Part shown: piece by piece, positions 49 through 48,058 of the stretch | Numbering within the stretch: position 1 is the stretch's first letter | Layout: each line of letters starts with the position of its first letter | Assembly: GCA_000004985.1 (NCBI GenBank) | Contig: GG738847.1 | Reading direction: 5' to 3' (one strand) | Length of the DNA stretch: 64,000 bases | From: Naegleria gruberi | Lineage: Eukaryota | Made by a program: the position numbers and the translations under genes | The notes under the pieces: generated by a model | Databases searched by the model: none | What the model was told of the DNA's origin: nothing | What the model saw: the letters and a program-made list of their open reading frames with translations, nothing else

Positions 49-636
49 TTGATGAATACAATTGATCCTCCACAATTGTTCTTCAAACTTTTAAATCACA
101 TTCTCTTAAAAAAGCTCTCCTCTGAAAATCAATCATTTTCCAGTCTTGAAAAAGAACGTTTATTAGAAACATTCCCAATGATTAAGAATGACAAACTCTT
201 AGTATTATTAATTGATGGTTGTAGCTATGTTTTTGAACAAGCTCTCTATAATGCTTTAAATCCAGAAAAATTATTCCAAGAATTGACTGAATCACAAAGT
301 GGTATTTCTGAAACACATGCTCAAGCTTTTCAAGAAGCTTGGAGAGTGAAAGGAAGAGAATATATGAATACTGCTAAGGAACACACTCTTGGAGGACCAG
401 TTGTTTTGGAAAACTTTGATTGGCGTTTACAAATGCAAATTTCTGAATCAGATCTCTCCAAAATGAAGATACCTAATGTCTTGTTTGAATTCACAACACT
501 TGACTATCAAAATAAGAATACTGAAACAATGAAACCAAAAGAGGAAAATATTGTGGTGGAATTTACTAAAGAAGAATTGTATGGATTCTTTACAAAACTT
601 GAAGCTATTCAAAATCAATTGGATAAGATTAGTTAA
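49..636 (+). CDS. COMM domain-containing protein (COMMD-like)
   Basis: 195-aa ORF. C-terminal ~70 aa (LENFDWRLQMQISESDLSKMKIPNVLFEFTTL...IVVEFTKEELYGFFTKLEAIQNQLDKI) fits the COMM domain pattern DW+l-v-l-sS...p-l-leL...v-fe-t-eeL-...L. AT-rich 5' flank. Confidence 0.5.
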   Translation: MMNTIDPPQLFFKLLNHILLKKLSSENQSFSSLEKERLLETFPMIKNDKLLVLLIDGCSYVFEQALYNALNPEKLFQELTESQSGISETHAQAFQEAWRVKGREYMNTAKEHTLGGPVVLENFDWRLQMQISESDLSKMKIPNVLFEFTTLDYQNKNTETMKPKEENIVVEFTKEELYGFFTKLEAIQNQLDKIS

Positions 637-858
637 ATATCTTTTGTTGTGTATTATAGAAAACTATTTAAAACTATTGAAATTGTATTAAAAAAAATTA
701 TGTCTTTCAATTATTTTGATTTTTTAATCGTAGATGATACCCTATGAACCTTATTATCATTCTATGGACAATTTTAAATGTATTGAAACATAATGTATTA
801 ACAAAATTTAATAAATATTAAATATTAAATGTTAAAAATAAAAATAATTTAAAAAAAA

Positions 859-6579: not shown

Positions 6580-7806
6580 CTAATCAACACGACCATAAAC
6601 TCTTCCATAAGCTTTCCTTAAATCTTGGTATCTTTGTTTTAGTTCCTGTTCCTTACTTCTTGAAACTACATTAGTTCTTTCAACTGGTGCTTCCTTTTTA
6701 GGTGGTGCACTCCTTTGAGGTGGATAATCTGACTCGGAATCACTCTCCTCTTTCTTATAGGAATCTACCACTGATCGTTTTGAAGAGTGGTTCTTTTGAG
6801 ATGATTTTGGTTTTTCTTCCAACATTTCATTCTCTGATTCTGTTGATAAAAATTCAGTAGAGTGGGTTTCCTTCCTGAAAACTGGAGAATTGATGGCAGT
6901 TCTCTTTGAAAGAACTACTAATTGAGGTTGCTCTCCCTCTGTATCAGAGGACGACGCGGATGACATTACAATTCTATCCCTCGATCTTTCCCTCGAGTCT
7001 GGTTCTTCCTCAGGTTCTGGCTTCTGTGAAGCAAGATCTTTGAACTTTTTCTGGAGGTATGCAGTCTTCCTTCTGTATCTTTCTTGAATGTCTCTAAGCT
7101 CGGTTAATCTCTCCTCGAATATCTTCAGTTTTGTTTCATGAAGTGTAAAAAGCTCCTCTATTGACTTTTTTTGAGAACTAACATTTTCTTCAATGTTGTC
7201 CACTCTGTGTCTTAATGAACTGTACTTTTTGGCCTGGGTTGTTACTTGTAAATCCATTTCCTTCATCATTTCTTCAACAGAAACAATTTTCTTTTCTATA
7301 GCATGGTTTTTGCTCTTTTGCTGGTCGTACAATAATTGATACTTGTTGAAGAGTGTCTCGTACTTTTTCAATTGTTCTTGATATTGACTTGTTGTTGAAG
7401 AGGACCTCATTGGAATACTCTCGGCATTGTTGTTACTATTACTGGAAGCTGTTTTTGAAACATTATGGGATGACGAAGAAGGTCTGGGTATTGTTACAGT
7501 GTTTGTCCTAGATGGTGTTTGTTGAGAATTACTGCTCAATGATTTACGAACGGGAGAGCTTGATTTTGATCTTTTAGGTTTCTTCTTTGTCGTATTTCTA
7601 GATGATGATTTGTTGTTTTCATTTCTTTGAGCCATTGTCTGATTGTACCTAGCACTGGATGAAAAAGTTGGTTGTGTGAGTCTTGATTGCTGTTGTTGCT
7701 GTTGTTGTTTGGTCGATGATGAGTGAGTGGTTGTCGATGGAACTGCTGCATTCAGTAAGGGAGATGAGTATGCCTTACCGCCCATCAACACACTCTTTGT
7801 TTTCAT
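6580..7806 (-). CDS. hypothetical Ser-rich coiled-coil protein
   Basis: 408-aa ORF. poly-Q (QQQQQQQQ). Long S/T/N-rich N-terminal half. Heptad-like central region (EELFTLHETKLKIFEERLTELRDIQERYRRKTAYLQKKFKDL). Acidic S-rich C-terminus. Confidence 0.5.
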   Translation of the reverse strand: MKTKSVLMGGKAYSSPLLNAAVPSTTTHSSSTKQQQQQQQSRLTQPTFSSSARYNQTMAQRNENNKSSSRNTTKKKPKRSKSSSPVRKSLSSNSQQTPSRTNTVTIPRPSSSSHNVSKTASSNSNNNAESIPMRSSSTTSQYQEQLKKYETLFNKYQLLYDQQKSKNHAIEKKIVSVEEMMKEMDLQVTTQAKKYSSLRHRVDNIEENVSSQKKSIEELFTLHETKLKIFEERLTELRDIQERYRRKTAYLQKKFKDLASQKPEPEEEPDSRERSRDRIVMSSASSSDTEGEQPQLVVLSKRTAINSPVFRKETHSTEFLSTESENEMLEEKPKSSQKNHSSKRSVVDSYKKEESDSESDYPPQRSAPPKKEAPVERTNVVSRSKEQELKQRYQDLRKAYGRVYGRVD

Positions 7807-17099: not shown

Positions 17100-18950
17100 A
17101 TGGGCAATGATAAGAGTAAGGGCTTTTTGAACTCTGCCAATTCGGCAGACAAGGATGAACTTGATAAAACCATAGAAAAATTGAAGGGTATTGAAGTATC
17201 TTCGATGAAATTCTATCCGATCAAGTTGAATGGCAAGGAGAAGAATCAAAACTTGTTATTTCCAAAGGAGGTTATTATGGAGATGGCAATTAATTATTTG
17301 GAAATTAGGGATATGCATAAATTGGCAATGACTTGTAAATTATTGTATAATTGGTTATTTTCTGATGCAAATGAATTTTGGAGAAGAGTTGGAGAGAGGG
17401 ATGGATTTTCTGATAAAAGTGGAGAAGAAATTCAGAAAATCTATGCTAATTTATGGAAGCAATGTTTTGATTTTGAGAATCATCAGTATTTTGAAAATTG
17501 CCTTCAATCTAAGATGTATACCTACTCGAATAGCCATTCTTACAATTATGAGAATTTTATGAAATTTTTGGATGGAATTAATAGAGATATTAATCAAATG
17601 ATTTATGTTTTGAGAAATCCAAAGAGAAATATCATTTTGAGGGCTTATATTGCTGTTTATGGATTGTGGGATCACACAAAGGGAGAAGAGTTGGATGAAA
17701 AACTTGAGAAAATCTTCAGAACACTGTGTTTCACTGAAGATGGAACTGAATTAGAGGCAATTATTGATTGGCAAAGTACCAAAGTTTGCAATTTACTCTC
17801 TATTACAATGGATATGAACCTTCAAAGGTTAAATAGTGATCAGGTAAAGGAAAGAATTGAAGATTTATTTCTACAAACAGCAGCATTTAGAGTTGACTGT
17901 TCTGGATTCACAAAATATTATAGGTTTGCAGAGGGACAATTATCTGAAAGGGCTAACAAACTTCTCTCTAACAGATATCAAACTAGGGAAAGCAATCCAA
18001 AATGGTGTGAATATTATGATTTGCTTTTGAGGGTTCTGACAACACCAGAGATACGTAAGACAATCCATAGCATTTATAGCTTAGAATCCATCATGCAGTA
18101 TTTCCAATCATTTAAAAGGGAGGAATCGATTGATATTATTATAGATCTTTTAAGGAGTAATGAGTTATTTAAGGAAGAACAAACAATTGGATATATAACC
18201 TGTAAGAGTTTAGCTTGGGATCATCCGAGAATATTTGAAGAGTTGATGAATGAAAGATACTATTCGAATGAGTGTTCATATATCTATGCAAATCTGATCG
18301 GAAGATATATATACACCAATAGTCAGGAGGTTAATGTGGATGTCAGGAAAAGAGCATTGAACCACATTTCATTTATATGTAAGAATAAGAAGCATATTAA
18401 TGAGATTGCAGATACATTCATCTATTATCTACCATGGAAGAAATTGAAAGAATTTACTAATTTCCAATGGACAGAATTTAAAGAGGAAGCATTGAAAGAG
18501 TTAAAGGAATGTACATATTATATGTGGACCTACACGCAAAAAGTTTCATTCCTTCCAATCCTTACAGATTTTTATGCTGAAGAACAAGATAGAACAATCA
18601 ATCAACTATTGAGCTTAAAGCCCCTTTCAGGTAGAGACACAAGCCACTACATTGTTGAGGAGGCATTCAGAATCTTGAAAAATTATGCTGAGAGAATTCA
18701 ACTACAAGACTACGATTCATATTTCCCTCGGTTGATTGAGTACCTGAAGGCTTATATTCTAAACCCTGATTGCCACAATAATGATTGTACTATTAAGGAA
18801 ATAGTTAAAGCTGCTGAATGGATTCAACCAAAGTATTCTATTGAGAAACTGTATGGAACCATGAAAAAGGCATCAGAAACCAGTTCATTTATTCAATACT
18901 ATGTAAAAGATGGTCTTCCAAGTATTGAATTAATCATGAACAAACAATAA
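17100..18950 (+). CDS. F-box domain protein
   Basis: 616-aa ORF. F-box-like segment FPKEVIMEMAINYLEIRDMHKLAMTCKLLYNWL near the N-terminus. MGNDKSK start (possible N-myristoylation). Remainder helical with no other recognisable domain. Confidence 0.55.
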   Translation: MGNDKSKGFLNSANSADKDELDKTIEKLKGIEVSSMKFYPIKLNGKEKNQNLLFPKEVIMEMAINYLEIRDMHKLAMTCKLLYNWLFSDANEFWRRVGERDGFSDKSGEEIQKIYANLWKQCFDFENHQYFENCLQSKMYTYSNSHSYNYENFMKFLDGINRDINQMIYVLRNPKRNIILRAYIAVYGLWDHTKGEELDEKLEKIFRTLCFTEDGTELEAIIDWQSTKVCNLLSITMDMNLQRLNSDQVKERIEDLFLQTAAFRVDCSGFTKYYRFAEGQLSERANKLLSNRYQTRESNPKWCEYYDLLLRVLTTPEIRKTIHSIYSLESIMQYFQSFKREESIDIIIDLLRSNELFKEEQTIGYITCKSLAWDHPRIFEELMNERYYSNECSYIYANLIGRYIYTNSQEVNVDVRKRALNHISFICKNKKHINEIADTFIYYLPWKKLKEFTNFQWTEFKEEALKELKECTYYMWTYTQKVSFLPILTDFYAEEQDRTINQLLSLKPLSGRDTSHYIVEEAFRILKNYAERIQLQDYDSYFPRLIEYLKAYILNPDCHNNDCTIKEIVKAAEWIQPKYSIEKLYGTMKKASETSSFIQYYVKDGLPSIELIMNKQ

Positions 18951-22015: not shown

Positions 22016-24091
22016 ATGACTCAATTCAAAGAAGAGAAAGAAATGTTGAATCATCATCAACATGAAGAAGAGGAGCAACTAGTTGAGAATCAAAACCCTT
22101 CGATACCAACAGCAAATAATTCAATTGAAGAAGAAGAACAAGAAACTCATCAAGCTAACACTGAACAAGATTCAAAACAACACAATCATCTGCACCCCAA
22201 TGATTCATATCCTCAACAACATCACGAACAACATCAGCACAACAACCAACATCATCATCAAGTTTATTACAATACAGCTTCCTCACTCTCGACAATATCT
22301 GAGAATAATAGCGAGGAAATTGATCATCCCTACTATGAACAGAATAATGTGGCAACTGATTTGAATCAAGTTTTGGATTGTTTTAATGAGAATGTTTTGC
22401 CAACACTGATTATAACTGAGAGACACATTCACGATGATTTGAAACATAGAGCCTCACTCGAAAAACCTGATCATGGTCATCACAAACATCATGGTCGTCA
22501 ACCTTCCACAGAACAATTAAAAAAGGAAATTGAAGAAATGGGATCTTCAAATAAGGAAAATCAACAAGAATTGAAATTGTCCAATAGGAGAAGATATGTA
22601 AATTTGATACTCTTCCTATTTGGTACCATGTTTTTCAAATTTTCATATGAAACTCTGTCAGGAGCAATTGGTTTAACAATTTTAACACGACTCGAAGGTC
22701 ATCCACTTGGAGCAACTACAATTTTGAGCTTGTTGACCATTACCTTTGGTTTATCTCAATCTGTTTCTTCATCGGCAGTTGAAGGTCTATTGAAGGTTAT
22801 TCGTGCCACTCGTTTGTACTGCATTTCACTGATATTCTTCTCTGCACTGATTATAACAATGATTGTTTTGGAGGCCACCACTGGAGGTACCCTCACCTCG
22901 CCAGGTTATTGGACTCCTTGGATTATTTTCCCAATCTATGTCTTTATTGGATTCAATGTTGGTATTATTGAGGTGGTGAGAAAGATTATTCCTGCCTCAA
23001 TTCTTGGTAATTCTGAATCTTCAACGTTGAAGAGATTGAATGCTGGAATTCACATTTCCTATGAAATTGCTGGAACTATTGGTGCTTTCCTTTCAAGTGT
23101 TTTCATTGAACAATTGGGAACTATCTATGCTCTCTTCCACATGCCGGTTTGCTTCTTTATTGGCTCGTTGTTCTTCTTTTTCATTACATTGAAGGATACT
23201 GAGAGAATTTTGGAAGAGGATACCGCTGATGAAGATGACATCTTTAAGGAAAATGTTCCAACAGAGAATCGTGTCCTCAACATTTTGAAAAAGATTGGCA
23301 AAGTTATTAAGGATTACTTCTACAGCATGTACATTGGAGCCAAAATTGTGCTCACCAACAGATATTACATTTGGTTGATTCCATGCTTTGTCATTCCACA
23401 AGTTCTCCATCGTTTGATTGAGAACATTTTCTTACCTGCCTTCTCCAAGATGATCTTAAAGAAGGGATCCTACTCTGGTATCATGCTCGGGGGTAGTAAT
23501 TTTGGTGAATTGGTTGGTGCTGGTTTACTATTAATCTTTGCCAAGAAGGTCAAACTTCCAACTATATGGATCATTTTGGATTCTCTCTTTTTGAATTTAA
23601 TGTGGATTTTCCCATTCCTCACTTTTGATGAGACAACCAATGAAAATTTAATATTTGCCATTTGCATTGTTCCAGCAATGGTTTTGATTTCTGGATCGTG
23701 GGCTGCTGGTGATATCAGTCAAATTGCCTACTTGCAATCAACCTTATCAGATGAACCAAACGAACAAACTGGAGTCAATGAGTTGGCTGCAGTGATGAGT
23801 TTCTTGTATTCCTGTTATATTGTATTGACTACTTTGGTGGCCTTTGGTCTTTCCCAAGCTGTTGATAGATTTAAGGAAAGTGGACGTCCAGAGTTTGGTT
23901 TCATGACCATTTGTATTGTAATGTCTGTAATTTCCTTTGCTATCTGTATCATTTATTTGACTGTGGCCAAATTCAAACCATCAGTTCATGATGATCACTT
24001 GGGAGAAGAGCTTGAAATGCAGCAAACTGCTACAACAACAAATAATGTTGAAAGAGAAAGTTCAATTGAGGAACAAACAGTAAATGTTTAA
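22016..24091 (+). CDS. polytopic membrane protein, putative MFS-type transporter, with His/Gln-rich N-terminal tail
   Basis: 691-aa ORF. About 190-aa hydrophilic N-terminus (HHQHEEEE, QHHEQHQHNNQHHHQ). Then about 12 hydrophobic segments in two halves separated by an acidic loop (LKDTERILEEDTADEDDIF). The transporter class is inferred from topology only. Confidence 0.5.
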   Translation: MTQFKEEKEMLNHHQHEEEEQLVENQNPSIPTANNSIEEEEQETHQANTEQDSKQHNHLHPNDSYPQQHHEQHQHNNQHHHQVYYNTASSLSTISENNSEEIDHPYYEQNNVATDLNQVLDCFNENVLPTLIITERHIHDDLKHRASLEKPDHGHHKHHGRQPSTEQLKKEIEEMGSSNKENQQELKLSNRRRYVNLILFLFGTMFFKFSYETLSGAIGLTILTRLEGHPLGATTILSLLTITFGLSQSVSSSAVEGLLKVIRATRLYCISLIFFSALIITMIVLEATTGGTLTSPGYWTPWIIFPIYVFIGFNVGIIEVVRKIIPASILGNSESSTLKRLNAGIHISYEIAGTIGAFLSSVFIEQLGTIYALFHMPVCFFIGSLFFFFITLKDTERILEEDTADEDDIFKENVPTENRVLNILKKIGKVIKDYFYSMYIGAKIVLTNRYYIWLIPCFVIPQVLHRLIENIFLPAFSKMILKKGSYSGIMLGGSNFGELVGAGLLLIFAKKVKLPTIWIILDSLFLNLMWIFPFLTFDETTNENLIFAICIVPAMVLISGSWAAGDISQIAYLQSTLSDEPNEQTGVNELAAVMSFLYSCYIVLTTLVAFGLSQAVDRFKESGRPEFGFMTICIVMSVISFAICIIYLTVAKFKPSVHDDHLGEELEMQQTATTTNNVERESSIEEQTVNV

Positions 24092-30118: not shown

Positions 30119-32248
30119 ATGAAACATACCTTCCTTCGTAAAATCAATAGATTGCAGTTATTTACTGCATCACCCAAAATCAACAGATCAATATTAAAAA
30201 TTAATAATTTAACTAATGATATTAACAAGTTTACAATTAATAGAGTGAATCAAACTAAAAACTATTCAAATACATTAAAACCAACAACAAATAATGTTGA
30301 AAATATTAAATTTAAAAATATTGGTGACCGAAATTTGTTGGTGCCATATTTTCCATATGGTGAATCAGATTTTGCTTCCATCAGAAGAAGTAAACAATTT
30401 TATGTTGATAAAACTAATTTAATTCCTCTATTAGAAGAAAGTGGAAAACAATTATTTTTTGTTCGTCCTCCGAGATGGGGAAAATCACTATTATTATCAA
30501 TGCTTTCATCATATTATGATGTTAACAAGAAAGATGAATTTGATGAATTATTTTCTGGTTTATGGATTGGTGATGAAAATAATTGGACACCTGGAAAGAA
30601 TCAATATTATGTTTTAAAGTTAGATTTTTCTATTCAAGTTGATGGTACTGCTGATGATATTAATCAACGACTTCACACAAAAATCAATACAACCATTGAA
30701 GGATTTTTGGAATGTTATGGTATGGGTGGTGAGGTTAGCATTAATCAAAATGATTCATTTGATACTTATCAAAAACTTATCCAACTTTTAGTCAAGAGAA
30801 AAGGCAAATTAATGGTATTAATTGATGAATATGATAGATTTGCAAACAAATTAATGTTTGAAAATCCTGAAAAATATCAATTAATAGTTGAAGGAAAGAG
30901 AGGAGATCCAACATCTTCACCAATTCGTTCTTTCTTTGAAAGATTGAAAGAGTCTTCCGCTACTGGTTTACAAGATTTTCGTAGTATCATCACTGGTATC
31001 ACTCCTATTGCTCTTGCTGATGCATCTGGATATAATGTTTCCAGTAATATTTCCTCTGATAAGATATTTGGTGGTTTGGTTGGTTTTACAGAAAATGATT
31101 TGAGAATGGCATTAAATAACATTGATATTATTGGAAATGATCAAGATATTACCATTTCAACCATGAAAAAGTATTATAAAGGTTATCATTTTCCTGGTTC
31201 AAAACATGCTCTATTCAACACAACTCTTTCAATGTTCTTTTTGAACAAACTTGTAAAAGATGAACCTTTCAGAAATGCTGTTCTACAAAAACAAGAAATT
31301 CCATTATCAATATTAACAGATACCAACACAATGATCAGTGAGAACGTTTTTGCAACTTTGGCATCATCAGTTGTATCGAATGATATTATTCAACAATTAC
31401 TTTCAAAAGATTATGTAGAAGTAACAGAGTCAATTTATCCTTCACTGAAATTAAGAGAGATTATTGATCCACCATCCAATGAAGAAGATATACAAAAGAT
31501 TCGTGATAATGCTTTATCATTCATGTATTATCATGGTATGATTACTTTCACAGAATCATCCTCAAAACAAATGAATCCAAAACAATTGTTAATTCCAAAT
31601 GAAATTGCAAAGGTTCAATATTTGGAACAGTTACGTAGACTTATATCTTTACGTGAAAGTGATATATCAACTTTTATTAATGAACCAACTCAAGATAATT
31701 TGAAAAAATTACTTTGGAGTATTTTAAGCAAGCAAGAAACAGTGTTTGACAATGATATGTCTGAAGGAGGTTTACAATCTTGTATTGAATCTGCATTGAG
31801 ATCATATTCTTTATATAGAAGCAAAGATTTTACTCTTAGAGCAGAAAAGGAATATACAAATTATCATATCAATGGAAAAGAATATACTGAATTAAGAGCT
31901 GACCTTGTTATTTCAACCGACAATGACATATTTATCATTGAATTGAAACATTTGAGACCAATGTATTTATCACAATATTCTACTATTAGAATTTGGAAAC
32001 CTTATATGTTTAAGGAAAAATTTAAAGAATTATTACAAGCTGATGAAAGCCAGTTATTGAATATGCTAGTTTTTCAAAAATGGGCAAACAAATATGTTAA
32101 AGTTGAAAGTATCTTAAATGAGGCAAGTTCTAAGGTTAAACAATATGCCAAAAAAGAACAAGAATTACTTGGCAATAATGATAAAACTATCCACAAGTTC
32201 GTTGTCATTCAAGTTGGTTGGCCTCTTATTGTGAGGAAAGTAAATTAA
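30119..32248 (+). CDS. bacterial-type AAA-ATPase-like (PF09820-like) plus PD-(D/E)xK nuclease-fold (PF08011/PDDEXK_9-like) protein with eukaryotic N-terminal extension
   Basis: 709-aa intronless ORF. After a ~75-aa basic N/K-rich extension, the sequence LLVPYFPYGESDFASIRRSKQFYVDKTNLIPLLEESGKQLFFVRPPRWGKSLLLSMLSSYYD matches the N-terminal signature of the predicted AAA-ATPase family (P.G..DF..I.....YYVDKT..I..L......F..RPRRFGKSL..S.L..Y). The C-terminus carries a PD-(D/E)xK core: ELRADLVISTDNDIFIIELKH...VIQVGW. Confidence 0.8.
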   Translation: MKHTFLRKINRLQLFTASPKINRSILKINNLTNDINKFTINRVNQTKNYSNTLKPTTNNVENIKFKNIGDRNLLVPYFPYGESDFASIRRSKQFYVDKTNLIPLLEESGKQLFFVRPPRWGKSLLLSMLSSYYDVNKKDEFDELFSGLWIGDENNWTPGKNQYYVLKLDFSIQVDGTADDINQRLHTKINTTIEGFLECYGMGGEVSINQNDSFDTYQKLIQLLVKRKGKLMVLIDEYDRFANKLMFENPEKYQLIVEGKRGDPTSSPIRSFFERLKESSATGLQDFRSIITGITPIALADASGYNVSSNISSDKIFGGLVGFTENDLRMALNNIDIIGNDQDITISTMKKYYKGYHFPGSKHALFNTTLSMFFLNKLVKDEPFRNAVLQKQEIPLSILTDTNTMISENVFATLASSVVSNDIIQQLLSKDYVEVTESIYPSLKLREIIDPPSNEEDIQKIRDNALSFMYYHGMITFTESSSKQMNPKQLLIPNEIAKVQYLEQLRRLISLRESDISTFINEPTQDNLKKLLWSILSKQETVFDNDMSEGGLQSCIESALRSYSLYRSKDFTLRAEKEYTNYHINGKEYTELRADLVISTDNDIFIIELKHLRPMYLSQYSTIRIWKPYMFKEKFKELLQADESQLLNMLVFQKWANKYVKVESILNEASSKVKQYAKKEQELLGNNDKTIHKFVVIQVGWPLIVRKVN

Positions 32249-37320: not shown

Positions 37321-38348
37321 ATGTCTGAAAGAAAGGGTCACACTAGAATGTACGTTAATAGATTCTTTTTCATTATCTAATTCATTGAATGACCATTGTT
37401 ATGTGCATTATTAAACTGCACTGCCATTATTATTATACCAATAATAACAGGCACAGCGCCACATCATTCATTGATGTTACCAAGGGATATAACCCAAGAA
37501 CATCACTGACGCAAGAACAAAATGAAATTTTAAACGATTTTATCAAGAAAATCGATTATGATAGTTTAACCGATAGAGAACGTAAATATCTTGATGAACC
37601 ATCACTTTTACGTTTCCTCAGAGCAAGAGACTATGATTTAAACAAGGCAGAAAAGTTAATGAACAGCTGTCTTGAATGGAGAAGAACATTTAAACCAGAT
37701 GAAATTACTGCCAAAGAATTGGAAGATGAATCATCATCAGGAAAACTCTTCCAAAGAGGATTTGATAAGAATAATAGACCAATTATATACATGTTCCCTG
37801 CTAGAGAAAATTCTACTGACTATGAAAAGAATATTAAATTATTGGTATATACTATGGAAAGAGCAGTTGATGCAATGCCAGAAGGTGTTGAACAAATGAC
37901 TTGGATCATTGACTTTAACGGCTATACTACAAGAAACGCTCCACCATTTTCTGTTGCCAAACAAACTTTAAGCATTTTGAACGAATGTTACCCAGAAAGA
38001 CTTGGTGCTTGTTTTATGGTTGATACACCTTTCATCTTTAATATTTTCTGGAGAGCAATTTCTCCATTCATTAATCCAGTTACAAAGAATAAGATTCACT
38101 TTGTGAATGGTAAGGAAAGCGAAAAGGCCAAGATTTTTGGAAAACACATTGATCTTGCACAAATTGATACAACTTGGGGTGGTACTTCAACATTTGTCTT
38201 TGAACATTCAGACTTTTGGGGTAACGTCATGGAACTTGATAAGCACAGACTCAAGAGATTGGGCATTACTCAAGATGCTCCTGTTGTAGAAGAGAAAAAG
38301 TTTGAAAATACTAACAATACCGAAGGTGCTAAGGCAATTACCAATTAA
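37321..38348 (+). CDS. Sec14-like phosphatidylinositol/phosphatidylcholine transfer protein (CRAL-TRIO domain), 2 exons
   Basis: join(37321..37349,37451..38348). The 29-nt first exon ends ATGTCTGAAAGAAAGGGTCACACTAGAAT|GTACGT. The 101-nt intron ends AATAACAG, restoring ...TRMHSATSFIDVTKG. CRAL-TRIO hallmarks: LLRFLRARDYDLNKAEKLMNSCLEWRRTF, MTWIIDFNGYT, LGACFMVDTPFIFNIFWRAISPFINPVTKNKIHFV. Confidence 0.8.
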
Positions 38349-39748: not shown

Positions 39749-42700
39749 TTAAACATTGGAAGAACTTCTTTTACAAAGAGAAAATATTTTTCTGGCTTGA
39801 GTAGAGAAGAAGTTGTGAGTGGCAATGACAGCAAGGTTATAGAAACTAGATGGTTTGACACAAACAAGGGACATAAAAGAGATTATTCTGAAAACAAAAC
39901 CAAAAACTACCATCATATAAATACTCATGTAGAATTCATCCCACTCATAGCCCATAATCTTCAAACTCTTAGAAAGGTCATAAATATTCTCGTATCTCTT
40001 CAATTCAATAAGATAAGCATTTTCGTGACTGTAAGTCAAGTAGGAAAGATAAGGTAAAATATTGATAGGGAAATACATAGATTTGAAGGTTGGTAGAGGT
40101 GTTGTAGCACCACTGAAAGTATTGAAAATGAAAACAATAACTACAGCAGTCAATTGAGAAATGTTTGGTTGAATAATAATACTAATAAAATAGCCCAAAC
40201 CATATGAAGTCCAATATACCAACAATAAAACATAATAGTATTCGTATACGGGCGCTCTAGGAGCAACTGTTGTGTAGTAAATTCCAAGGAAAACCATAGG
40301 AGCAAAAATGTTTACAATGAACATTGAAATGTCCTTAGCCCAGAAATAGCAGAAAGTGCTGAGACCAGTTTGACTTTCTCTATAGAAAACAAGATATTCA
40401 TTACCAAAAACTCTGAGTGCTGACATGGCACCCATAAGAGCCATAGCCAATGTCATCAATGAGGATGTTGCATAGATTGGATCTTCAAGAGGTTGAGCAC
40501 AAATTTCTTCTAAACCATTAGGACACATTTCATAGACAGATTTTGGTGGAGGACCAATGTAAACCTTATTATAATAAATTAAACCAAGGAAGGCACCGCA
40601 CAAGAATACTAACGCATAATCGAGTACCAAGCTAGGTAATGTTCTCAATAATTGTGTACAACTTCTCTTGAAACACATCCAGAATTGAGAAAAGTACGGA
40701 ATTCTTGGATTCTTGAATTTGTTAACTCTGGCAGGTGGAGCATTAGTCTTACAGCATGATTTGACTTCAGTTGCTTGGATAGTTCCTTCAAAGGAGGTTG
40801 GTGATTCATTCTCGATTGGTGGCAAATGTTGAGCAATACCAGTTTGATCATCCGCATACTTGACCTTCAATCTATCCCAAATGGCAGGTAAATCAGTAGG
40901 ATGGAATTCTTCACCATCATCTCTTTCCATAAGACCAGCAGATACGTCAATAACAAAGTCAGCCAAGTTAGTGCCAAGAGGTTTAGTAAAACCAATTTCC
41001 TTAAAGTATTCTTCGACTCTATGAACTGACCCCAAGTAAATGGTTCTACCACCCTTACCTAAGAGGAGTAAATTGTCGAACATGTTGAAAATTTCATATC
41101 TAGGCTGGTGAATAACTGTAATAACAGTGATACCACAACTAGAAATTGCTTGAAGAGCTTCACAAACTTCCTTAGAGCTGGCAGAATCCAAACCTGATGT
41201 AGGCTCATCCAAGAACAAAACATATGGAGATGAAACAAGTTCAATACCAACATTAACACGTTTCTTTTGACCTCCAGAAATACCTCTCTTTTCTTGATCT
41301 CCAATAATACTGTGTCTGACATCTTCTAATCTTAAAACTTTGATAACATCATTTACAATGGAATCAATTTGTTTAGATGGAGTATTGGCATCAAGTCTTG
41401 TCTTGGCTGAGAAGAATAAGGTTTCTTCGACAGTCATAGAGCTAATCATAATATCATCTTGTGGAACAAATCCAATCTTACGATTGTATTTTGATAATGG
41501 TTCTTCAACACCATTAACAAATACTTTACCAACTTGAGCACCATAGTAGGCACGATTGGAAAGTGTTGTAATAAATGTACTCTTACCAGCACCACTCAAA
41601 CCCATGACAGCAGTCAATTTACCATGTTTGATTTCACCAGTAACACCATCAAGAACCTTCTTACCAGAACCTCTCAAAACAAGACCTAAATCTTGGAATC
41701 CAATGTCAACAGTAAATTGTTCTTCATGGAAACTACTGCCATAATTTTGTTGTTTTTGAGCTCTGGAAAAGAGGGAAGATGCTTCATGTGGATTTTCCTC
41801 CCTTTGACGAGCACTCATCTTGACATAAAACTTGAATGCAGCTCCATAAGCAAAGTAAAGACATGCCAATAAAACAAGCAAACACAAAACAAGGAGCAAG
41901 CCTCCAATGGTCATTCTATCAGTTGGGCTACCTTCAGGACAAGAAGAAAAGAACCAAGAACATGTAGATGGTTCAATAAAGCCTTGTCTACAGAAATATC
42001 CTTCTGGGCAAATAACTTTGAGACTAGCATTTGGACAATAATAACCTTCTGGGCAAAGAGAATAGGTGAATGAACCTTCAGGACAATATTGGGTCAGTGA
42101 GCACTCCTTAATGGAATTTGGATTTTCACAATAGAAACCAGCTGGGCACAAATCCTTTTCAACAGTACCAGGTGGACAGTAATCCATTGAGTCATTGGTG
42201 AATGAGCATAGAGATGGTTGCAAAATTGATGCATTAACACAATAAGTGTCAGCAGGACAAAGAAGACTGGTCAAGGTTTTGTTTTCAGGAGTCAAAATGA
42301 CCTCTCTTCCCAAGTTACAATAATCTCCCTCCTCGCACAAAGCCAATCCATTGAGAAGTAATGAACCATCTGGTTGGATGGTCTTCTTAACAAAGTGACC
42401 TGGAGAAGCAGGAATAGGAATAAGATAATCAGTTGTACACAAGGTACCATTTGGACATTCATATGCAGAGACTAAATTTTGGCTGTAACATGTTTGATAT
42501 CCATAGTCGGCATCACACTTTTTAGGTGCATCCATAGCAAAATCTGGGCAAACATAACCAAAAGGACATGGAATTCTAATACCAGCAACACAATAACTAC
42601 CCAAAATACAAGGAATTTCTGCAAGAGACCTGTAAACAAAAGTACCTTTTGATGCAGATGGTCTAACTTGATTCTTACTGAAAAATCCACAAACATTTCC

Positions 42701-44878
42701 TCTAACACAAGAACTTGAAGCAATAGCAAATTGATTTTCATCGATTGGAGTTGGTGGAACGAGAGTACATTCATCATCGAACATCTTAAGGAAGACATTA
42801 TCAGGATTAGGCAAAAGAGTTTCACAGACAAGACTATATCTCTTCTTTGCTTCTAATTCCCATTTTTGTCTGCTAACAGCAATAAATAAATGTTGATTGT
42901 TGGTTGAAACGAAAACATCAATAATATTTCCTAGAGTTTTGAATCTGTTCAATTTCTTGAGAGAAACATAGGCTTGAGGTTTAACAAGGTCAATATCCAA
43001 AGCCATTGCATGAATTTCCATAGCAGCAGAAGCTTTAGCAACATAGATATTTTGTTGCCAATATCCATAGAAGAAACTGTAAAGGTTTCTTACATCTCCC
43101 ATACCACCATTGAAAATTTCAATTTCACAAGTTAAGTTCTTGGCAGCTATTCTACAAGATTCCCTATGAGGTGGTCTACCAGATCCTATATATTCCATTT
43201 CGCAAAATACTTCAGGATTGAGTTTACCTCCTTCAAAATAAGATTGAACGGCTCCAGTAGTATGGTTTACATCCATGAATCTTGAGGTAATTGAAATAAT
43301 TTCTGAATCAAACACTTCATAATTTTCAACGTTATCTTCACATTCACCGTTAGCATTGATAAATTGAGATCCACTACAGGCAAAATTCTTTGCTCTGTTT
43401 GCAGTGTTGGAGAAATCCCTTTCAAAGTTGTAGCTATAAAACTCTTCCATGTGATGAATGGTGAGTCTGTAAATTGGATTACTTGGACCGTTATAGGTTT
43501 GTGTTAATCCCAAAATCAAGAACATATTTTGAGAAACTGGAAATTGAACATTATCACAAGTGGTTTGTCTTGTAATTGCTAAAGGTCTTCTAATCTTTTC
43601 AGCCACTAAGTGAGAATAGGTGATTTCAGTGTACTCAGGGGCAACATAGAAAGTATTCAACAAGTCTTTGGTGGTAAAATCAATTTCTTTTTGTGGGGCA
43701 TCTCTTTCTGAAAATTCAAAAATTCTAACCTCCTTATCTGTTTGAATGCTTACCAAAACTCTAGAGGTGCTCAATTTCTTAGCGAATAAAAAAGTTGGAT
43801 CGATACGCATTGGGGCAGATGGAGAAAACTTTCCATGTTGATGGGCAAGATCAAAGACAACATTCTTGTTACCTTCAGGAACAGTAATTGTCCATTTGGT
43901 GACCTTGAACTCATTTTGTGAAACTGCTTCAGGTTGAATAAAGTAAATTTGATATTTTGTTGATGATATTTTAGCCAAAGCAACAGAATAAATATGTTGC
44001 TCTTGTGATTCTCTAACCATACGTAATTGTAAAACATCACTGACAGATTCATCTAATGGATAATACCAATTCTTTCCTTTGAGAGACCCATCAGCAAAGT
44101 CTAATGTAATGTTAAAAATACCATTAATATATAATTGGTTATTTCCAACAGCATTTTGAGCAAATGACAAGTGGTCATAGGCATCAGAACCATAACCTGT
44201 TTCCTTGGCATGTCCATCAAATTTGATAATATTCTTGAAAAGTTCTGGCTTATAGTAAATTCTTGTTGCTTTTTCAAACATATGTTCAAGGGTATTTCTC
44301 ATAAGGAAAATTCTACCATTTGAAAATGCTTCCACTACATAACTCATATCATATAGGATGAAATTTTCATCAAAACCTCTAATACCCACAATACTTTTAC
44401 AATTATTCATTTGGTCGTCATGTGGTTCAGAATGATTATAAGGCCCAGATTCACATTCATAACTAAAATCACCTTTTGGTATAATTGTTGTGTCAAAGAA
44501 AATGTCAGGTGTGCCAGCATACGGATTGACAACTTCACACCACATATTTTTGACGAAACTTCCAAATAATAAAGTTGGAACACAAACACCTGCACTTCCA
44601 GGTCCTCTAAATATATAATTTGTATTTGGTTTTGGAGGATCAACCTTGTTGATTGTATTTTGTTTTGAAATATAATCCCTTAGCTGAGAAAAAGCGACAG
44701 GATCATTTGGGAGAATTCTTTTTGAGCGAGGCACATTGTATCCACTAATTCCATAATTGCCTAAAAGTACTATGCACAGTACAAGACAACACAGAAGGAT
44801 TTTCAATGATGATGATGATAATATTGTTACTCCCCTGGAGGATCTGTTAAAACTACTATTAATAATAATATTCTTCAT
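39749..44878 (-). CDS. ABC transporter, G subfamily (White-type half transporter: NBD then TMD) fused to a ~950-aa N-terminal cysteine-rich extracellular domain
   Basis: 1709-aa single ORF. N-terminal hydrophobic anchor (ILLCCLVLCIVLLGNYGISG). About 640 aa of unknown fold. About 300 aa of repeated CPxG(Y/F)(Y/F)C modules (CPEGSFTYSLCPEGYYCPNASLKVICPEGYFCRQGF). TM helix (LLLVLCLLVLLACLYFAYGAAF). NBD with Walker A GLSGAGKST, signature ISGGQKKRVNVG, Walker B VLFLDEPTSGLD. Six C-terminal TM helices. Confidence 0.85.
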   Translation of the reverse strand: MKNIIINSSFNRSSRGVTILSSSSLKILLCCLVLCIVLLGNYGISGYNVPRSKRILPNDPVAFSQLRDYISKQNTINKVDPPKPNTNYIFRGPGSAGVCVPTLLFGSFVKNMWCEVVNPYAGTPDIFFDTTIIPKGDFSYECESGPYNHSEPHDDQMNNCKSIVGIRGFDENFILYDMSYVVEAFSNGRIFLMRNTLEHMFEKATRIYYKPELFKNIIKFDGHAKETGYGSDAYDHLSFAQNAVGNNQLYINGIFNITLDFADGSLKGKNWYYPLDESVSDVLQLRMVRESQEQHIYSVALAKISSTKYQIYFIQPEAVSQNEFKVTKWTITVPEGNKNVVFDLAHQHGKFSPSAPMRIDPTFLFAKKLSTSRVLVSIQTDKEVRIFEFSERDAPQKEIDFTTKDLLNTFYVAPEYTEITYSHLVAEKIRRPLAITRQTTCDNVQFPVSQNMFLILGLTQTYNGPSNPIYRLTIHHMEEFYSYNFERDFSNTANRAKNFACSGSQFINANGECEDNVENYEVFDSEIISITSRFMDVNHTTGAVQSYFEGGKLNPEVFCEMEYIGSGRPPHRESCRIAAKNLTCEIEIFNGGMGDVRNLYSFFYGYWQQNIYVAKASAAMEIHAMALDIDLVKPQAYVSLKKLNRFKTLGNIIDVFVSTNNQHLFIAVSRQKWELEAKKRYSLVCETLLPNPDNVFLKMFDDECTLVPPTPIDENQFAIASSSCVRGNVCGFFSKNQVRPSASKGTFVYRSLAEIPCILGSYCVAGIRIPCPFGYVCPDFAMDAPKKCDADYGYQTCYSQNLVSAYECPNGTLCTTDYLIPIPASPGHFVKKTIQPDGSLLLNGLALCEEGDYCNLGREVILTPENKTLTSLLCPADTYCVNASILQPSLCSFTNDSMDYCPPGTVEKDLCPAGFYCENPNSIKECSLTQYCPEGSFTYSLCPEGYYCPNASLKVICPEGYFCRQGFIEPSTCSWFFSSCPEGSPTDRMTIGGLLLVLCLLVLLACLYFAYGAAFKFYVKMSARQREENPHEASSLFSRAQKQQNYGSSFHEEQFTVDIGFQDLGLVLRGSGKKVLDGVTGEIKHGKLTAVMGLSGAGKSTFITTLSNRAYYGAQVGKVFVNGVEEPLSKYNRKIGFVPQDDIMISSMTVEETLFFSAKTRLDANTPSKQIDSIVNDVIKVLRLEDVRHSIIGDQEKRGISGGQKKRVNVGIELVSSPYVLFLDEPTSGLDSASSKEVCEALQAISSCGITVITVIHQPRYEIFNMFDNLLLLGKGGRTIYLGSVHRVEEYFKEIGFTKPLGTNLADFVIDVSAGLMERDDGEEFHPTDLPAIWDRLKVKYADDQTGIAQHLPPIENESPTSFEGTIQATEVKSCCKTNAPPARVNKFKNPRIPYFSQFWMCFKRSCTQLLRTLPSLVLDYALVFLCGAFLGLIYYNKVYIGPPPKSVYEMCPNGLEEICAQPLEDPIYATSSLMTLAMALMGAMSALRVFGNEYLVFYRESQTGLSTFCYFWAKDISMFIVNIFAPMVFLGIYYTTVAPRAPVYEYYYVLLLVYWTSYGLGYFISIIIQPNISQLTAVVIVFIFNTFSGATTPLPTFKSMYFPINILPYLSYLTYSHENAYLIELKRYENIYDLSKSLKIMGYEWDEFYMSIYMMVVFGFVFRIISFMSLVCVKPSSFYNLAVIATHNFFSTQARKIFSLCKRSSSNV

Positions 44879-45712: not shown

Positions 45713-48058
45713 ATGCCTGGAAATCACCATCACACTCACCCACACAAAAAGCAGCACCATCACTCAAACAATCCTGCAGCAAATACTTCCAATAGTAATA
45801 CTAATACCAATAATACTAATAATAATAATCAGATGCAACAACAGCATAGTAGGGAAGGAAAATCCAATAATTCTACCAATTATATAAATAATAATACTAC
45901 AACTAATAATAATAATTATTACCATCAACAACAACAACAATCCATGCCAAATAATGCCACTCGATTCAATCACAATTACAATTCTTCTAATAACAAGTAT
46001 AATAATTATAATAATAGCAAATCGATCGTGATCCAACCGAATCCTTCTACACTCAATAATAGACCATCATTGACACCATCACCAATTCCTTCAGCATCAT
46101 CAGCTTTGAAAAGTAATAATTTGAGGAAAAAGTTGGAGATTATTTTGGAAGAGAGGATTGCTCAGAATGATTTGTGTTTTTCAATTTGTAATCATTATAG
46201 GGCAATTATTAATCATTTGGAAAAGATCAAGTTTGATTCGAAAGAAAAGCTGCAATCATTCTTGTTTTTAAAAAGTCAACTGGATGCTAAATTTGAATTT
46301 TATATTGTAAAAAAGATAATTATTCCACATTTAATAATTGCTTTGGGTGTTGAGGCTTATGAAGTTAATCAGAATTCTCAACAACCGTCTGCAATACCAG
46401 ATAAGAAGAGCTATAATTTAACTGCTCGTCCTAAAAAAGTTGAAAGTCAGACAGAGCAAGCTAAATTGATTGAATTAGCTCCAAAATTGAGTAGTTCAGG
46501 AAACGCTTATTTTTCATTAGAATTTGACAGTGTCAGTGTTATTACTAGATTATTTTATGAACTTATCAAAACAAGCAAAAAGCTCTTTCGTTTGATGAAT
46601 ATCAAAATTATTTATGAGAAGAATGGATTTGAAAATCTTGATTTCACATCCCTAAAGAAAACTCTTAGTTTTTATAAGCATCTTTTACCAGCTCATGCCA
46701 CATTTATGAAATTGAAGGGTATAAGAAACGATTGGGCTCACTTTGTAAATCCAACGACCATTCCATCACATATTATAAGGGCCTGCTTTATTTTCTGTCG
46801 TGAAATTTATGACCACTATCTCAGTATTACAACACCCAATTCAGATTCCAATTTATATATGAAGAGAAAAATAACTCTACATGAAGGTTTTGAGTATGAC
46901 TACAAGATTTGGGAATCTAAATCTAAAATTATTTCTGGAGTTGTGGCTCAATTTTGTCAGAAGCCAGAAAAAAAGAAGCAATCTGCTCTTAGAGTTGTTG
47001 AAGTGCTATCAGGCAGTTTGAAGAATGGAGGTCATCAAGAGAAAGATTTAGATAGACTTTGCAATGAGATTTTATTGAATTTGTTACCAAGATCTCCATA
47101 CCTATTGAAAGAAATGCAACAGATTAATGAGAAGGAAACACCAAGGGAGGATATTGTTTTCATTCTTCTTTCAAACGAATTCCAATCAAGAATCAAAAAG
47201 GACGAGCAATATGTTAAGGCTTTTAGTGGAACAAACTTGACAGATCAGAAATTTGTTAGCAAATCAGTTTTCTTCAAGGCTATTGTAACGAATATGAAGA
47301 ATGAAAACGACCATAGACAATTACTATTCGAAAGAGCTTACCATTACTTTATATTAGAAAAATGTTTGAAGAATCTCAAAGATCATAATTTTGAAGAAGT
47401 AATTATTCAAAAGTTCAAACAGGAAAAGAACATTAATACCCCAAAGGAACTTTATGAGAGGATATTGACAGATATTAATACACAAGTGGGCGAATTCAGA
47501 AAACTTTGGGTCTCTATTGCTATTGCCTTTAGTTCGTGTACTAACTTGGAAATACCTGATGCAATCAAATATTTGTCTTGGGCTCTGAAAGAAATGACAA
47601 TGACCACCAACAAATTTACATTTCCCCACATTATCAAACCTTACATAGTATTGGTGACAAAGTATCTCTGCCAATTCAATGATATAATGTTGTCGAATTT
47701 AATTCATTCGAGTGATGTAGCTATTTTGAAAACAGTGACCATTAGAGTTTGTTTGGCCTCGCTATTGAAATTCTACCATCTTTCTCCTGAAATCAGTCAA
47801 TTATTTATTGTTGCAAGAGAACAAATCAAAAGTATGGACCCTCAAATCTTACAACAATTAGAGGCAGAAGATTATTACGTCTTGAATGCAGATCCACAAA
47901 ATATCAACAAGGATTTGCTTATTCCAGTTGAGCTCACCTTTTCCGACTTGTGTAAGAATGAACGTGCTAATATTTCAGTGGAAGGATGTTTCGCATTCTC
48001 CTCATACCAAGAAATTCTGGAAGACGACAATAATACAGAAAACCAAACCGAACAATAA
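45713..48058 (+). CDS. hypothetical protein with His/Asn/Gln-rich low-complexity N-terminus
   Basis: 781-aa ORF. First ~130 aa MPGNHHHTHPHKKQHHHSNN...NNNNYYHQQQQQS. The remainder is an ordered helical region with no identifiable domain. The antisense ORF 45764..46036 is a compositional artefact. Confidence 0.5.
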   Translation: MPGNHHHTHPHKKQHHHSNNPAANTSNSNTNTNNTNNNNQMQQQHSREGKSNNSTNYINNNTTTNNNNYYHQQQQQSMPNNATRFNHNYNSSNNKYNNYNNSKSIVIQPNPSTLNNRPSLTPSPIPSASSALKSNNLRKKLEIILEERIAQNDLCFSICNHYRAIINHLEKIKFDSKEKLQSFLFLKSQLDAKFEFYIVKKIIIPHLIIALGVEAYEVNQNSQQPSAIPDKKSYNLTARPKKVESQTEQAKLIELAPKLSSSGNAYFSLEFDSVSVITRLFYELIKTSKKLFRLMNIKIIYEKNGFENLDFTSLKKTLSFYKHLLPAHATFMKLKGIRNDWAHFVNPTTIPSHIIRACFIFCREIYDHYLSITTPNSDSNLYMKRKITLHEGFEYDYKIWESKSKIISGVVAQFCQKPEKKKQSALRVVEVLSGSLKNGGHQEKDLDRLCNEILLNLLPRSPYLLKEMQQINEKETPREDIVFILLSNEFQSRIKKDEQYVKAFSGTNLTDQKFVSKSVFFKAIVTNMKNENDHRQLLFERAYHYFILEKCLKNLKDHNFEEVIIQKFKQEKNINTPKELYERILTDINTQVGEFRKLWVSIAIAFSSCTNLEIPDAIKYLSWALKEMTMTTNKFTFPHIIKPYIVLVTKYLCQFNDIMLSNLIHSSDVAILKTVTIRVCLASLLKFYHLSPEISQLFIVAREQIKSMDPQILQQLEAEDYYVLNADPQNINKDLLIPVELTFSDLCKNERANISVEGCFAFSSYQEILEDDNNTENQTEQ

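Follow-up and report, generated by a model that had tools for sequence, protein, structure and literature searches.

Structures have been solved for a range of ABCG transporters, among them human ABCG2, ABCG1 and ABCG5/G8, Arabidopsis ABCG25 and ABCG16, yeast Pdr5 and Candida Cdr1. All of these start directly with the nucleotide-binding domain (NBD), without a signal peptide, an ectodomain or an additional transmembrane (TM) helix. An N-terminal extension before the NBD separates the ABCG24/28 clade from such canonical ABCGs. Our search of the PDB returned no solved structure for any member of this clade and our literature search yielded a single functional study, on Arabidopsis ABCG28. In PMC7419745 and PMC9195045, both citing Do et al. 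2019, this protein is placed on secretory vesicles and linked to polyamine loading and ROS; PMC9195045 presents the vesicular localization as one that other plant ABCGs do not share. The same literature search found no description of the Cys-rich ectodomain and extra TM helix of the clade, or of the ABCGs of Naegleria.

The window analysed here, a stretch of 64 kb of the Naegleria gruberi genome, has as its longest open reading frame (ORF) an ABCG gene of 1709 codons that opens with an ATG and runs on without interruption (Table 1). Neighbouring ORFs match N. gruberi proteins exactly, which identifies the organism. The product of the ABCG gene consists of a signal-like segment at residues 27-42, an ectodomain of about 940 aa, one TM helix (TM0), an intact NBD and an ABC-2 membrane domain, and the ectodomain is made up of a distal head and a Cys-rich stalk next to the membrane. 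The coding frame holds the terminal stop only, while the other five frames hold 60-182 stops each, and the probability of 1709 stop-free codons by chance is about 10^-52.5 at the local base composition. The single ORF of 1709 aa claimed by the sequence-only reading was borne out exactly in its coordinates and length. No paralogue of the protein was found elsewhere in the 64-kb window.

The exact 1709-aa product had no match in the protein collection searched, and the public N. gruberi gene model may differ from the full ORF. The missing match, together with the shorter annotation of several relatives (P0004, 721 aa; P0008, 1068 aa), would fit an artefact in which the gene of a secreted Cys-rich protein and an ordinary adjacent ABCG gene are read as one, or an assembly chimera. 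We regard such an artefact as extremely improbable and effectively refuted, considering that the frame is free of stops and that collinear full-length proteins exist in N. lovaniensis (1687 aa) and N. fowleri (1678 aa). Moreover, the single ORF of a de novo Rigifila transcript encodes the head and the stalk together with TM0 and the ABC core, the short Acrasis model demonstrably lacks its 5' part, and 68 relatives also have the stalk and TM0. The N. lovaniensis protein C9374_007014 is collinear with that of N. gruberi over residues 59-1707, with 68% identity. The possibility raised beforehand, that the N-terminal region is an annotation artefact present in no related species, is contradicted by its collinearity in N. 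lovaniensis and N. fowleri and by its occurrence in Willaertia, Acrasis and Rigifila; a survey of related genomes likewise recovered the same fusion of ectodomain and ABCG in other Naegleria, in Willaertia, in Acrasis and in the Rigifila transcript. The 1709-residue gene is a real, undivided, single-exon gene.

Table 1. Features of the propeller-headed ABCG gene, with residues of the product and positions in the 64-kb window
Feature	Residues	Window position	Strand	Basis
Complete intronless ORF, propeller-headed ABCG24/28-type half-transporter, 1709 aa		39749..44878	-	ORF and stop statistics, collinearity with N. lovaniensis
Long n-region and hydrophobic core of 14-16 residues (ILLCCLVLCIVLLG, 27-40)	1-45	44744..44878	-	hydropathy
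N-terminal cap, 3 Cys (C99, C114, C142)	46-158	44405..44743	-	alignment; pLDDT 60-90 in the predicted structure
Beta-propeller (predicted), about 27 strands	~159-535	43274..44404	-	predicted structure and fold matches
Helical insert and small alpha/beta domain (predicted)	~536-720	42719..43273	-	conserved motifs
Cysteine-rich stalk, 26 Cys	721-988	41915..42718	-	Cys positions, alignment, AF2, Foldseek
Extra transmembrane helix TM0, then K/R-rich cytosolic flank	991-1012	41843..41908	-	hydropathy 2.87; helix 988-1028 in AF2 model
Nucleotide-binding domain	~1060-1310	40949..41701	-	all catalytic motifs; 91% identical to N. lovaniensis
ABC-2 membrane domain (PF19055 ABC2_membrane_7), ~6 hydrophobic helices	~1396-1709	39752..40693	-	Pfam, hydropathy

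Some 1060 residues, comprising the signal-like segment, the ectodomain and TM0, precede the NBD, and Walker A is found at residue 1093. The hydropathy profile has an N-terminal hydrophobic segment at about 27-45 and a single strong TM helix at 991-1009, ahead of the ABCG membrane domain. The first 45 residues are probably a cleavable signal peptide, the alternative being an uncleaved anchor, and similar segments are found in N. fowleri (P0162, P0169, P0122, P0127 and P0133) and Anaeramoeba (P0170). The ectodomain (45-988) contains 38 Cys, more than two thirds of which (26/38) lie in residues 721-988, eight CPxG motifs (a ninth lies in the membrane domain, in one of its extracellular loops) and five C-x2-G-x-[FYW]-C motifs. 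Since the number of Cys is even, the N-x-S/T sequons are concentrated in the ectodomain (9 of the 13 in the whole protein) and basic residues follow TM0, the ectodomain is most readily placed in the lumen or outside the cell. The topology proposed in the sequence-only reading, with a signal or anchor, an ectodomain, a TM helix, a cytosolic NBD and a membrane domain, found support in the hydropathy, in Pfam and in a helix at 988-1028 in the AF2 model of residues 721-1030. The proposed order of the parts also stood, but their sizes had to be corrected: the part called unknown spans ~46-720 and the Cys-rich part some 268 aa (721-988), instead of about 640 and 300 aa. A Pfam search with the whole protein gave no match upstream of residue ~1000 at E<=1.

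Within the core, Pfam places ABC_tran at 1076-1228 and ABC2_membrane_7/ABC2_membrane at 1398-1674, with the NBD N-terminal to the membrane domain in the reverse order that is typical of ABCGs. A degenerate, non-catalytic NBD could be rejected because all five motifs are intact (Walker A, 1093 GLSGAGKS; Q-loop, 1138 VPQDD; signature, 1200 ISGGQ; Walker B, 1220 VLFLDEP; H-loop, 1256 IHQP). The closest solved relatives in the PDB search were Cdr1/Pdr5, ABCG25, ABCG2, ABCG16, ABCG5/8 and ABCG1 (E 1e-36 to 4e-66), with which the Naegleria protein shares a homologous NBD and type-V exporter membrane domain. The NCBIfam model TIGR00955 aligns over 1071-1673, and its 333 bits fall short of the equivalog-style cut-off of 736. 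PF19055 scores 170.3 bits against a cut-off of 22.7 (E 8e-50).

All of the best 120 listed homologues carry PF19055, and the top matches, which bear the names ABCG24, ABCG28 or white-brown complex homolog 30, originate from plants, cnidarians, fungi, Capsaspora, Andalucia and Acrasis. In most complete clade members, 200-580 aa precede Walker A; they contain 12-36 Cys, CPxG motifs and a TM helix, the latter about 100 aa before Walker A. Residues ~600-984 have alignable counterparts in 68 relatives, which belong to plants, cnidarians, fungi and protists (E 1e-94 to 6e-4), and the stalk can be aligned directly with fern, bean, cnidarian, fungal and protist clade members. Judged by these similarities, the Naegleria protein is a half-transporter of the pan-eukaryotic ABCG24/ABCG28/WBC30 clade, with which it shares the PF19055 core, the signal-like segment, the CPxG[FY][FY]C ectodomain and TM0. 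The architecture that the sequence-only reading had called unusual, a Cys-rich ectodomain followed by TM0 and an ABCG, is therefore the normal build of the clade across eukaryotes, as the 68 alignable relatives attest. However, clade members of plants and animals have only the Cys-rich ectodomain of ~200-300 aa, on a total of 800-1150 aa, whereas the Naegleria protein adds a head of ~660 aa composed of cap, propeller and alpha/beta domain. It is a lineage-specific elaboration of a known ABCG type and not a unique fusion of sensor and pump. Extracellular loop 1 of the membrane domain carries a Cys pair (C1452/C1460), which is present in protist and fungal clade members and absent from those of plants and cnidarians.

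The membrane-proximal half of the stalk consists of tandem C-P-x-G-[FY]-[FY]-C hairpins of about 15-16 aa, and an alignment of the stalk across 21 homologues has 23 invariant columns, most of them Cys. The AF2 model of residues 721-1030 (pLDDT 88.5) contains short beta-hairpins, and in Foldseek it matched Mst1 (E 2.7e-7, 17% identity), Elapor1 (E 0.02), and 4-1BB and the Cys-rich domain (CRD) of CaSR (E 0.15-0.8), with the match to Mst1 as the only statistically solid one. According to this model, the stalk would fold as a ladder of disulfide hairpins that is nearest to the Chlamydomonas mastigoneme protein Mst1, followed by Elapor1 and TNFR-type repeats. The resemblance to Mst1, to Elapor1 with its ephrin-receptor-like/GCC2_GCC3 repeats, to the CaSR Cys-rich domain and to 4-1BB is one of fold and does not extend to a shared Pfam family. 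A Pfam search with residues 721-985 returned no family at E<=10, on which ground membership by sequence of Ephrin_rec_like (GCC2_GCC3, PF07699) or Furin-like was rejected. The resemblance to ephrin-receptor or furin-like repeats that had been noticed beforehand probably holds for the fold class, which the Foldseek matches suggest to be ephrin-receptor-like/TNFR-like, and does not hold for the Pfam families of those names.

The part of the ectodomain that the sequence-only reading had left as a fold to be predicted came out in the structure prediction as a head with a propeller: residues ~46-720 are predicted to form a cap, a beta-propeller and an alpha/beta domain. The cap, modelled at a pLDDT of 60-90 and so less confidently than the rest, has a conserved motif W-C-x3-N-P-[YF], the C and N of which are nearly invariant in the head alignment; C160 follows just after it, at the start of the propeller part. 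The propeller is modelled as a toroidal array of 4-stranded blades and is best matched by 7-bladed propellers. The alpha/beta domain contains the most conserved motifs of the head (S-x-N-x-Q-H-x-F, R-x2-W-E, C685 and C704), is common to the Anaeramoeba, Rigifila and Acrasis proteins, and includes N644 and N660, which like C685 and C704 are invariant or nearly so across the head homologues. Pfam returned no families for the head at E<=10, and the PDB sequence search with the ectodomain gave a chance match only (E 2.2). Because the propeller matches generic propellers only, at 5-11% identity, its fold provides no hint to a ligand. WD40 membership was rejected, as no Pfam WD40 was detected in the Naegleria protein or in any of 41 homologues, which gave ABC and P-loop families only. 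Membership of the Vps10, Sema or PSI families was rejected as well, on account of the lack of a Pfam or PDB sequence match and the generic nature of the fold likeness.

The head appears to be confined to few organisms. Just 40 cluster representatives among 1.84 billion proteins matched it, and the long ones are all ABCGs; those with a source name belong to N. fowleri (two), Willaertia, Anaeramoeba and Rigifila. A further protein search with a head profile of 14 sequences yielded only P0122, which was already known. Head and ABCG core occur together in N. lovaniensis, N. fowleri (two paralogues), Willaertia, Acrasis, where the DNA upstream of the annotated model encodes the propeller, the Rigifila transcript and uncultured eukaryotes. 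To avoid circularity, the propeller HMM was built without the Anaeramoeba and Rigifila rows. This HMM matched Rigifila at E 7.7e-11 and gave no match to the N-terminal ~500 aa of the Anaeramoeba protein. End motifs in common and a long BLAST HSP hint that the Anaeramoeba head is homologous. The head domain family is thus small and apparently exclusive to ABCGs, and it is common to Heterolobosea and Rigifila and probably to Anaeramoeba. The same full architecture including the head is present in N. fowleri FDP41_004289 and FDP41_012002, N. lovaniensis C9374_007014, Willaertia magna ABK040_006162 and the Rigifila ramosa transcript P017043; the Anaeramoeba flamelloides 'abc transporter g family member 28' is a long ABCG of the same build, with the reservation on its head just made. 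These long protist ABCGs span 1450-1850 aa, are unannotated or have generic names, and none has been studied. They group together in a neighbour-joining tree, a crude one without support values, and identity of the head to that of N. gruberi goes down to 20-30% outside its ortholog group. Compared with N. lovaniensis, identity declines from the NBD (91%) over the membrane domain (85%), the stalk (74%), the alpha/beta domain (59%) and the propeller (53%) to the cap (40%), a gradient in keeping with a conserved pump whose exposed head evolves faster.

With a confidence somewhat better than even, we read the protein as a functional seven-TM half-transporter of the ABCG24/28 clade, in which the clade-wide stalk carries a protist head, and which as a dimer acts as an exporter with a partner- or ligand-binding head. 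The ectodomain would be lumenal or extracellular, disulfide-bonded and glycosylated, and homo- or heterodimerization would display two stalks and two propellers. In the manner of ABCG exporters, the protein would move a small substrate out of the cytosol, either to the cell exterior or into a compartment of the secretory or endocytic route. The stalk would serve as a rigid hairpin ladder that holds out the propeller, and the propeller would most likely bind a ligand or partner in the lumen or outside the cell, with substrate acceptors, tethers and sorting determinants as examples.

A role of the propeller in signal transduction is less likely than one as a binding module. If a ligand bound to propeller or stalk controlled ATP hydrolysis or transport by way of TM0, which would make the protein a receptor-regulated pump, the physical connection would be available, as TM0 joins the ectodomain to the segment that directly precedes the NBD, and the conserved Cys pair of extracellular loop 1 could dock the stalk onto the membrane domain. 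The clade-wide retention of stalk and TM0 also suggests that they are integral to function, but this conservation is equally well explained by structural, acceptor or sorting roles. Considering further that neither a signalling domain nor a ligand-binding signature turned up, nor any precedent, that TM0 and the linker to the NBD are poorly conserved (21-69% identity), and that plant and animal clade members work without a propeller, we judge a sensor-transporter to be quite improbable.

Somewhat unlikely, in our estimate, is a protein that is a sorting or adhesion receptor first and a pump second, the ectodomain of which, resembling sortilin/Vps10 or semaphorin-plexin, sets the compartment or binds prey or matrix while the ABC part provides local transport. 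Several extracellular receptors are indeed built from a propeller, then a Cys-rich module and then a TM helix, and sortilin/Vps10, the sema-PSI part of semaphorin-plexin and LGI1 EPTP have the same module order, but the Pfam and PDB searches revealed no sequence-level kinship to the Naegleria protein. Extracellular propellers (LGI1 EPTP, Sema3A) are among the fold matches; however, cytosolic WD40s score equally well or better, which makes the likeness a generic one. The vesicular localization given for AtABCG28 in PMC9195045 would be in line with a sorting role, as would the several divergent paralogues in Naegleria and the head as the fastest-evolving part of the protein, as with surface recognition domains.

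The ABCA transporters offer a further comparison. ABCA1, ABCA3 and ABCA4 have large, disulfide-bonded and glycosylated extracellular domains that are thought to receive the substrate, and ABCA3 was among the NBD matches in our PDB search. The exporter fold class is common to both, but the resemblance is one of analogy and not of homology: the ABCA domains are no propellers and are inserted between TM1 and TM2 and between TM7 and TM8, whereas the Naegleria ectodomain is N-terminal and has its own helix as a tether. Cap, propeller and alpha/beta domain might constitute an undescribed extracellular domain family (~40 representatives among 1.84 billion), fused in every sufficiently complete member to an ABCG24/28 and dedicated to accepting or gating the exported substrate; we consider this unlikely.

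These results overturn nothing, considering that the genes were already public as hypothetical proteins and that the core architecture is typical of the clade. This clade is present in most eukaryotic supergroups, yet it has been little studied, and the Naegleria protein, with its confidently predicted fold of stalk and head, shows how far the clade ectodomain can be elaborated. Binding of a partner or of the exported substrate by the head, if it occurs, would make the head a parallel to the ABCA extracellular domains via a different structural route. If the head acts as an acceptor or gate, such a receptor-like head would be a first among ABCG exporters, and these proteins would form a class of surface proteins that are abundant and evolve fast in Naegleria, the pathogen N. 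fowleri included. Since at least two such genes are present in N. fowleri, the exposed head could be of practical interest as a surface marker.

The 1709-aa protein belongs to the ABCG24/28 clade, the half-transporters with the PF19055 membrane domain, and displays every testable defining feature of it; an extra N-terminal head (residues ~46-720) makes it a variant within the clade. A search with its ABC core (residues 985-1709) recovered thousands of ABCGs, the best 120 of which all contain PF19055. The names borne by some of these are ABCG24, ABCG28 or 'white-brown complex homolog protein 30'. The 120 proteins, typically 800-1260 aa long, derive from ferns, bean, green algae, cnidarians, zoopagomycete and chytrid fungi, Capsaspora, Andalucia, Perkinsus, Acrasis and others. 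In most complete clade members 200-580 residues separate the N-terminus from Walker A; they form an extension that has 12-36 cysteines and CPxG or C-x2-G-x-[FYW]-C motifs, and one hydrophobic helix sits ~100 residues ahead of Walker A. The ectodomain of the window protein gave 68 significant BLAST matches to such extensions, at residues ~600-984 (E 1e-94 to 6e-4), and an alignment of 21 sequences of the stalk (cysteine-rich residues 721-988) contained 23 invariant columns, mostly cysteines. Taken together, these sequence comparisons indicate that proteins of this pan-eukaryotic clade normally consist of a cysteine-rich ectodomain followed by an extra helix (TM0), the NBD and the membrane domain (TMD); this is not the unusual fusion proposed in the sequence-only reading. 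The survey of related ABCGs suggested there did reveal the same head, stalk, TM0 and core in other Naegleria and in Rigifila.

A sequence search of the PDB yielded no structure from the clade; the nearest entries (Cdr1/Pdr5, AtABCG25, ABCG2, AtABCG16, ABCG5/8 and ABCG1) all begin with the NBD, unlike the window protein. In the literature search no paper describing the N-terminal extension was found, and the sole functional study of a clade member found was that of Arabidopsis ABCG28. According to two papers that cite Do et al. 2019 (PMC7419745, PMC9195045), that protein is located on secretory vesicles at the pollen-tube tip and is needed for apical accumulation of polyamines and ROS.

Features of the window protein (residues) and of its genomic surroundings (window nucleotides)
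Feature	Position	Strand	Basis or remark
N-terminal hydrophobic core	27-40		hydropathy
N-terminal cap	46-158		45-770 model; lower confidence
About 27 strands	~159-535		45-770 model
Helical insert, five-stranded sheet, two helices	~557-706		45-770 model
TM0, strong TM helix	991-1012		hydropathy; K/R residues next, then ABCG helices
ABC_tran	1076-1228		Pfam
NBD motifs	Walker A 1093, Q-loop 1138, signature 1200, Walker B 1220, H-loop 1256		all intact
ABC2_membrane_7 (PF19055) and ABC2_membrane	1398-1674		Pfam; PF19055 170 bits, cut-off 22.7
Convergent ORF	ends 39617		neighbour of ABCG ORF
Divergent gene	45713-48058	+	neighbour of ABCG ORF; exact match to N. gruberi protein
Large ORF	3866-6424		exact match to N. 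gruberi protein
Large ORF	17100-18950		exact match to N. gruberi protein
Large ORF	30119-32248	+	exact match to N. gruberi protein

The ATPase is thus intact, and the first ~1000 residues gave no Pfam match, even when scanned separately at E<=10. Residues 45-770 were modelled by AlphaFold2 from a 41-sequence alignment (pLDDT 87.6, pTM 0.89), and the head contains a beta-propeller. The ectodomain (45-988) has 38 cysteines, an even number, of which 26 lie within 721-988, and holds 9 of the 13 N-x-S/T sequons of the whole protein. Near the membrane (positions 901-980) the cysteines are regularly spaced (10-6-9-6-10-6-9-6), forming tandem C-P-x-G-[FY]-[FY]-C hairpins of ~15-16 residues. In the AlphaFold2 model of residues 721-1030 (pLDDT 88.5), short hairpins are stacked as a ladder, and a helix (988-1028) comes after them. 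Foldseek matched the stalk to the Chlamydomonas mastigoneme Mst1 (E 2.7e-7, 17% identity), Elapor1 (E 0.02), and the CaSR cysteine-rich domain, 4-1BB/TNFR, meckelin and thyroglobulin (E 0.15-0.8). Considering these matches, the earlier label 'ephrin-receptor/furin-like' is reasonable for the fold class; tested as sequence membership it did not hold. A C-P-x6-C pair echoing the stalk motif occurs in extracellular loop 1 (TM1-TM2, residues 1452-1460, window ~40499-40525). It is kept in protist and fungal clade members (C in 37-53 of 99 sequences), is missing together with the entire loop insert from cnidarian and plant members, and may be where the stalk docks.

The ORF runs from an ATG exactly as first described (39749..44878, minus strand) and is the longest in the window. 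Its frame contains the terminal stop only, the remaining five frames contain 60-182, and the probability of 1709 stop-free codons, computed from local base composition, is ~10^-52.5. Both flanks are ordinary intergenic DNA. Full-length relatives are N. lovaniensis C9374_007014 (1687 aa, 68% identity, collinear with residues 59-1707) and N. fowleri FDP41_004289 (1678 aa, 52% identity, collinear over residues 90 to 1700); for another N. fowleri paralogue, FDP41_012002 (1549-1726 aa), the match begins at residue 369. Moreover, a de novo transcript of Rigifila ramosa (1575 aa) has head, stalk, TM0 and ABC core within one ORF. Given the collinear proteins and this transcript, we are dealing with one gene whose N-terminal region recurs in relatives, and not with the two genes or the isolated N-terminal region that the sequence-only reading had named as possible refutations. 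A fusion artefact is effectively excluded. In C9374_007014 the hydrophobic signal segment is missing, and the initial ~16 residues are unalignable. The window ORF, FDP41_004289 and several metagenomic homologues all possess the segment; the start codon of C9374_007014 was probably mis-called.

Four neighbouring large ORFs are identical to N. gruberi proteins (EFC49516.1, EFC49512.1, EFC49509.1 and EFC49700.1) of one 941,567-bp scaffold, which assigns the window to that species. An exact-sequence look-up in the protein collection did not find the ABCG product or those of ORFs 13237-16218 and 22016-24091, so the public models of these three may differ from the plain ORFs. The CRAL-TRIO domain gene at 37389-38348 (+) encodes 319 aa from its first ATG versus 308 aa in NCBI model EFC49514.1, implying a start-codon or model discrepancy. 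The ORF at 30119-32248 encodes a 709-aa 'AAA-ATPase-like domain-containing' protein that clusters at at least 90% identity with EFC49725.1 and EFC49683.1 of the same scaffold, and looks like a member of a recently duplicated family. The divergent neighbour (781 aa, NAEGRDRAFT_78037) is uncharacterised and has a long, low-complexity N-terminus rich in His, Asn, Gln and Thr.

When 1.84 billion cluster representatives were searched exhaustively by HMMER for residues 45-720, only 40 proteins matched at E<=1e-3. All those long enough to judge are ABCGs whose Walker A falls at residue 670-1060; the others continue into the cysteine-rich region or are short fragments. Named sources are N. fowleri, Willaertia magna, Anaeramoeba flamelloides and Rigifila ramosa, the others being metagenomic. 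A propeller HMM rebuilt with the Anaeramoeba and Rigifila rows left out matched Rigifila (E 7.7e-11) and one metagenomic ABCG (E 1.5e-5), and gave no Anaeramoeba match. Homology of the Anaeramoeba head is probable in view of its conserved N-cap motifs, C-terminal head motifs and one long BLAST HSP. The Acrasis kona 'ABCG24' model (1068 aa; contig JAOPGA020000634.1, 8001-11283) begins within the head. In tblastn, window residues 373-738 matched this contig at 7338-8480 (E 1e-40), upstream of and across the annotated start; the model is evidently 5'-truncated, with the missing propeller part encoded upstream. The N-cap is matched weakly at 6609-6755. In a crude neighbour-joining tree of the ABC core, made without support values, the heterolobosean long forms group together, with Anaeramoeba adjoining and Rigifila nearby, which is only a hint.

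Identity to N. lovaniensis falls from the NBD (91%) via the TMD (85%), stalk (74%), alpha/beta domain (59%) and propeller (53%) to the cap (40%). What is established about ABCGs, together with topology rules, suggests a lumenal or extracellular, disulfide-bonded ectodomain, a dimeric protein, and export of a substrate from the cytosol, taking place at the plasma membrane or filling a vesicular compartment. The head, held out on the rigid stalk, would most likely bind a partner or ligand, as acceptor, tether or sorting determinant. The sensor role suggested earlier, here understood as gating of the pump by a ligand via TM0, is possible, though nothing specific speaks for it. A serious rival is that the protein is a receptor first. 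The ABCA transporters resemble the window protein by analogy only: they too combine a type-V exporter with a large extracellular domain, although one attached differently. Analogy is likewise all that links it to propeller-plus-cysteine-rich receptors.

Because public databases already contain homologues, entered as hypothetical proteins or under generic names, the head-bearing ABCG is not a new kind of system. What is new is that the head is recognised as a domain family with a propeller, apparently exclusive to ABCGs and occurring in a few protist lineages, and that folds are confidently predicted for the uncharacterised stalk of the ABCG24/28 clade.
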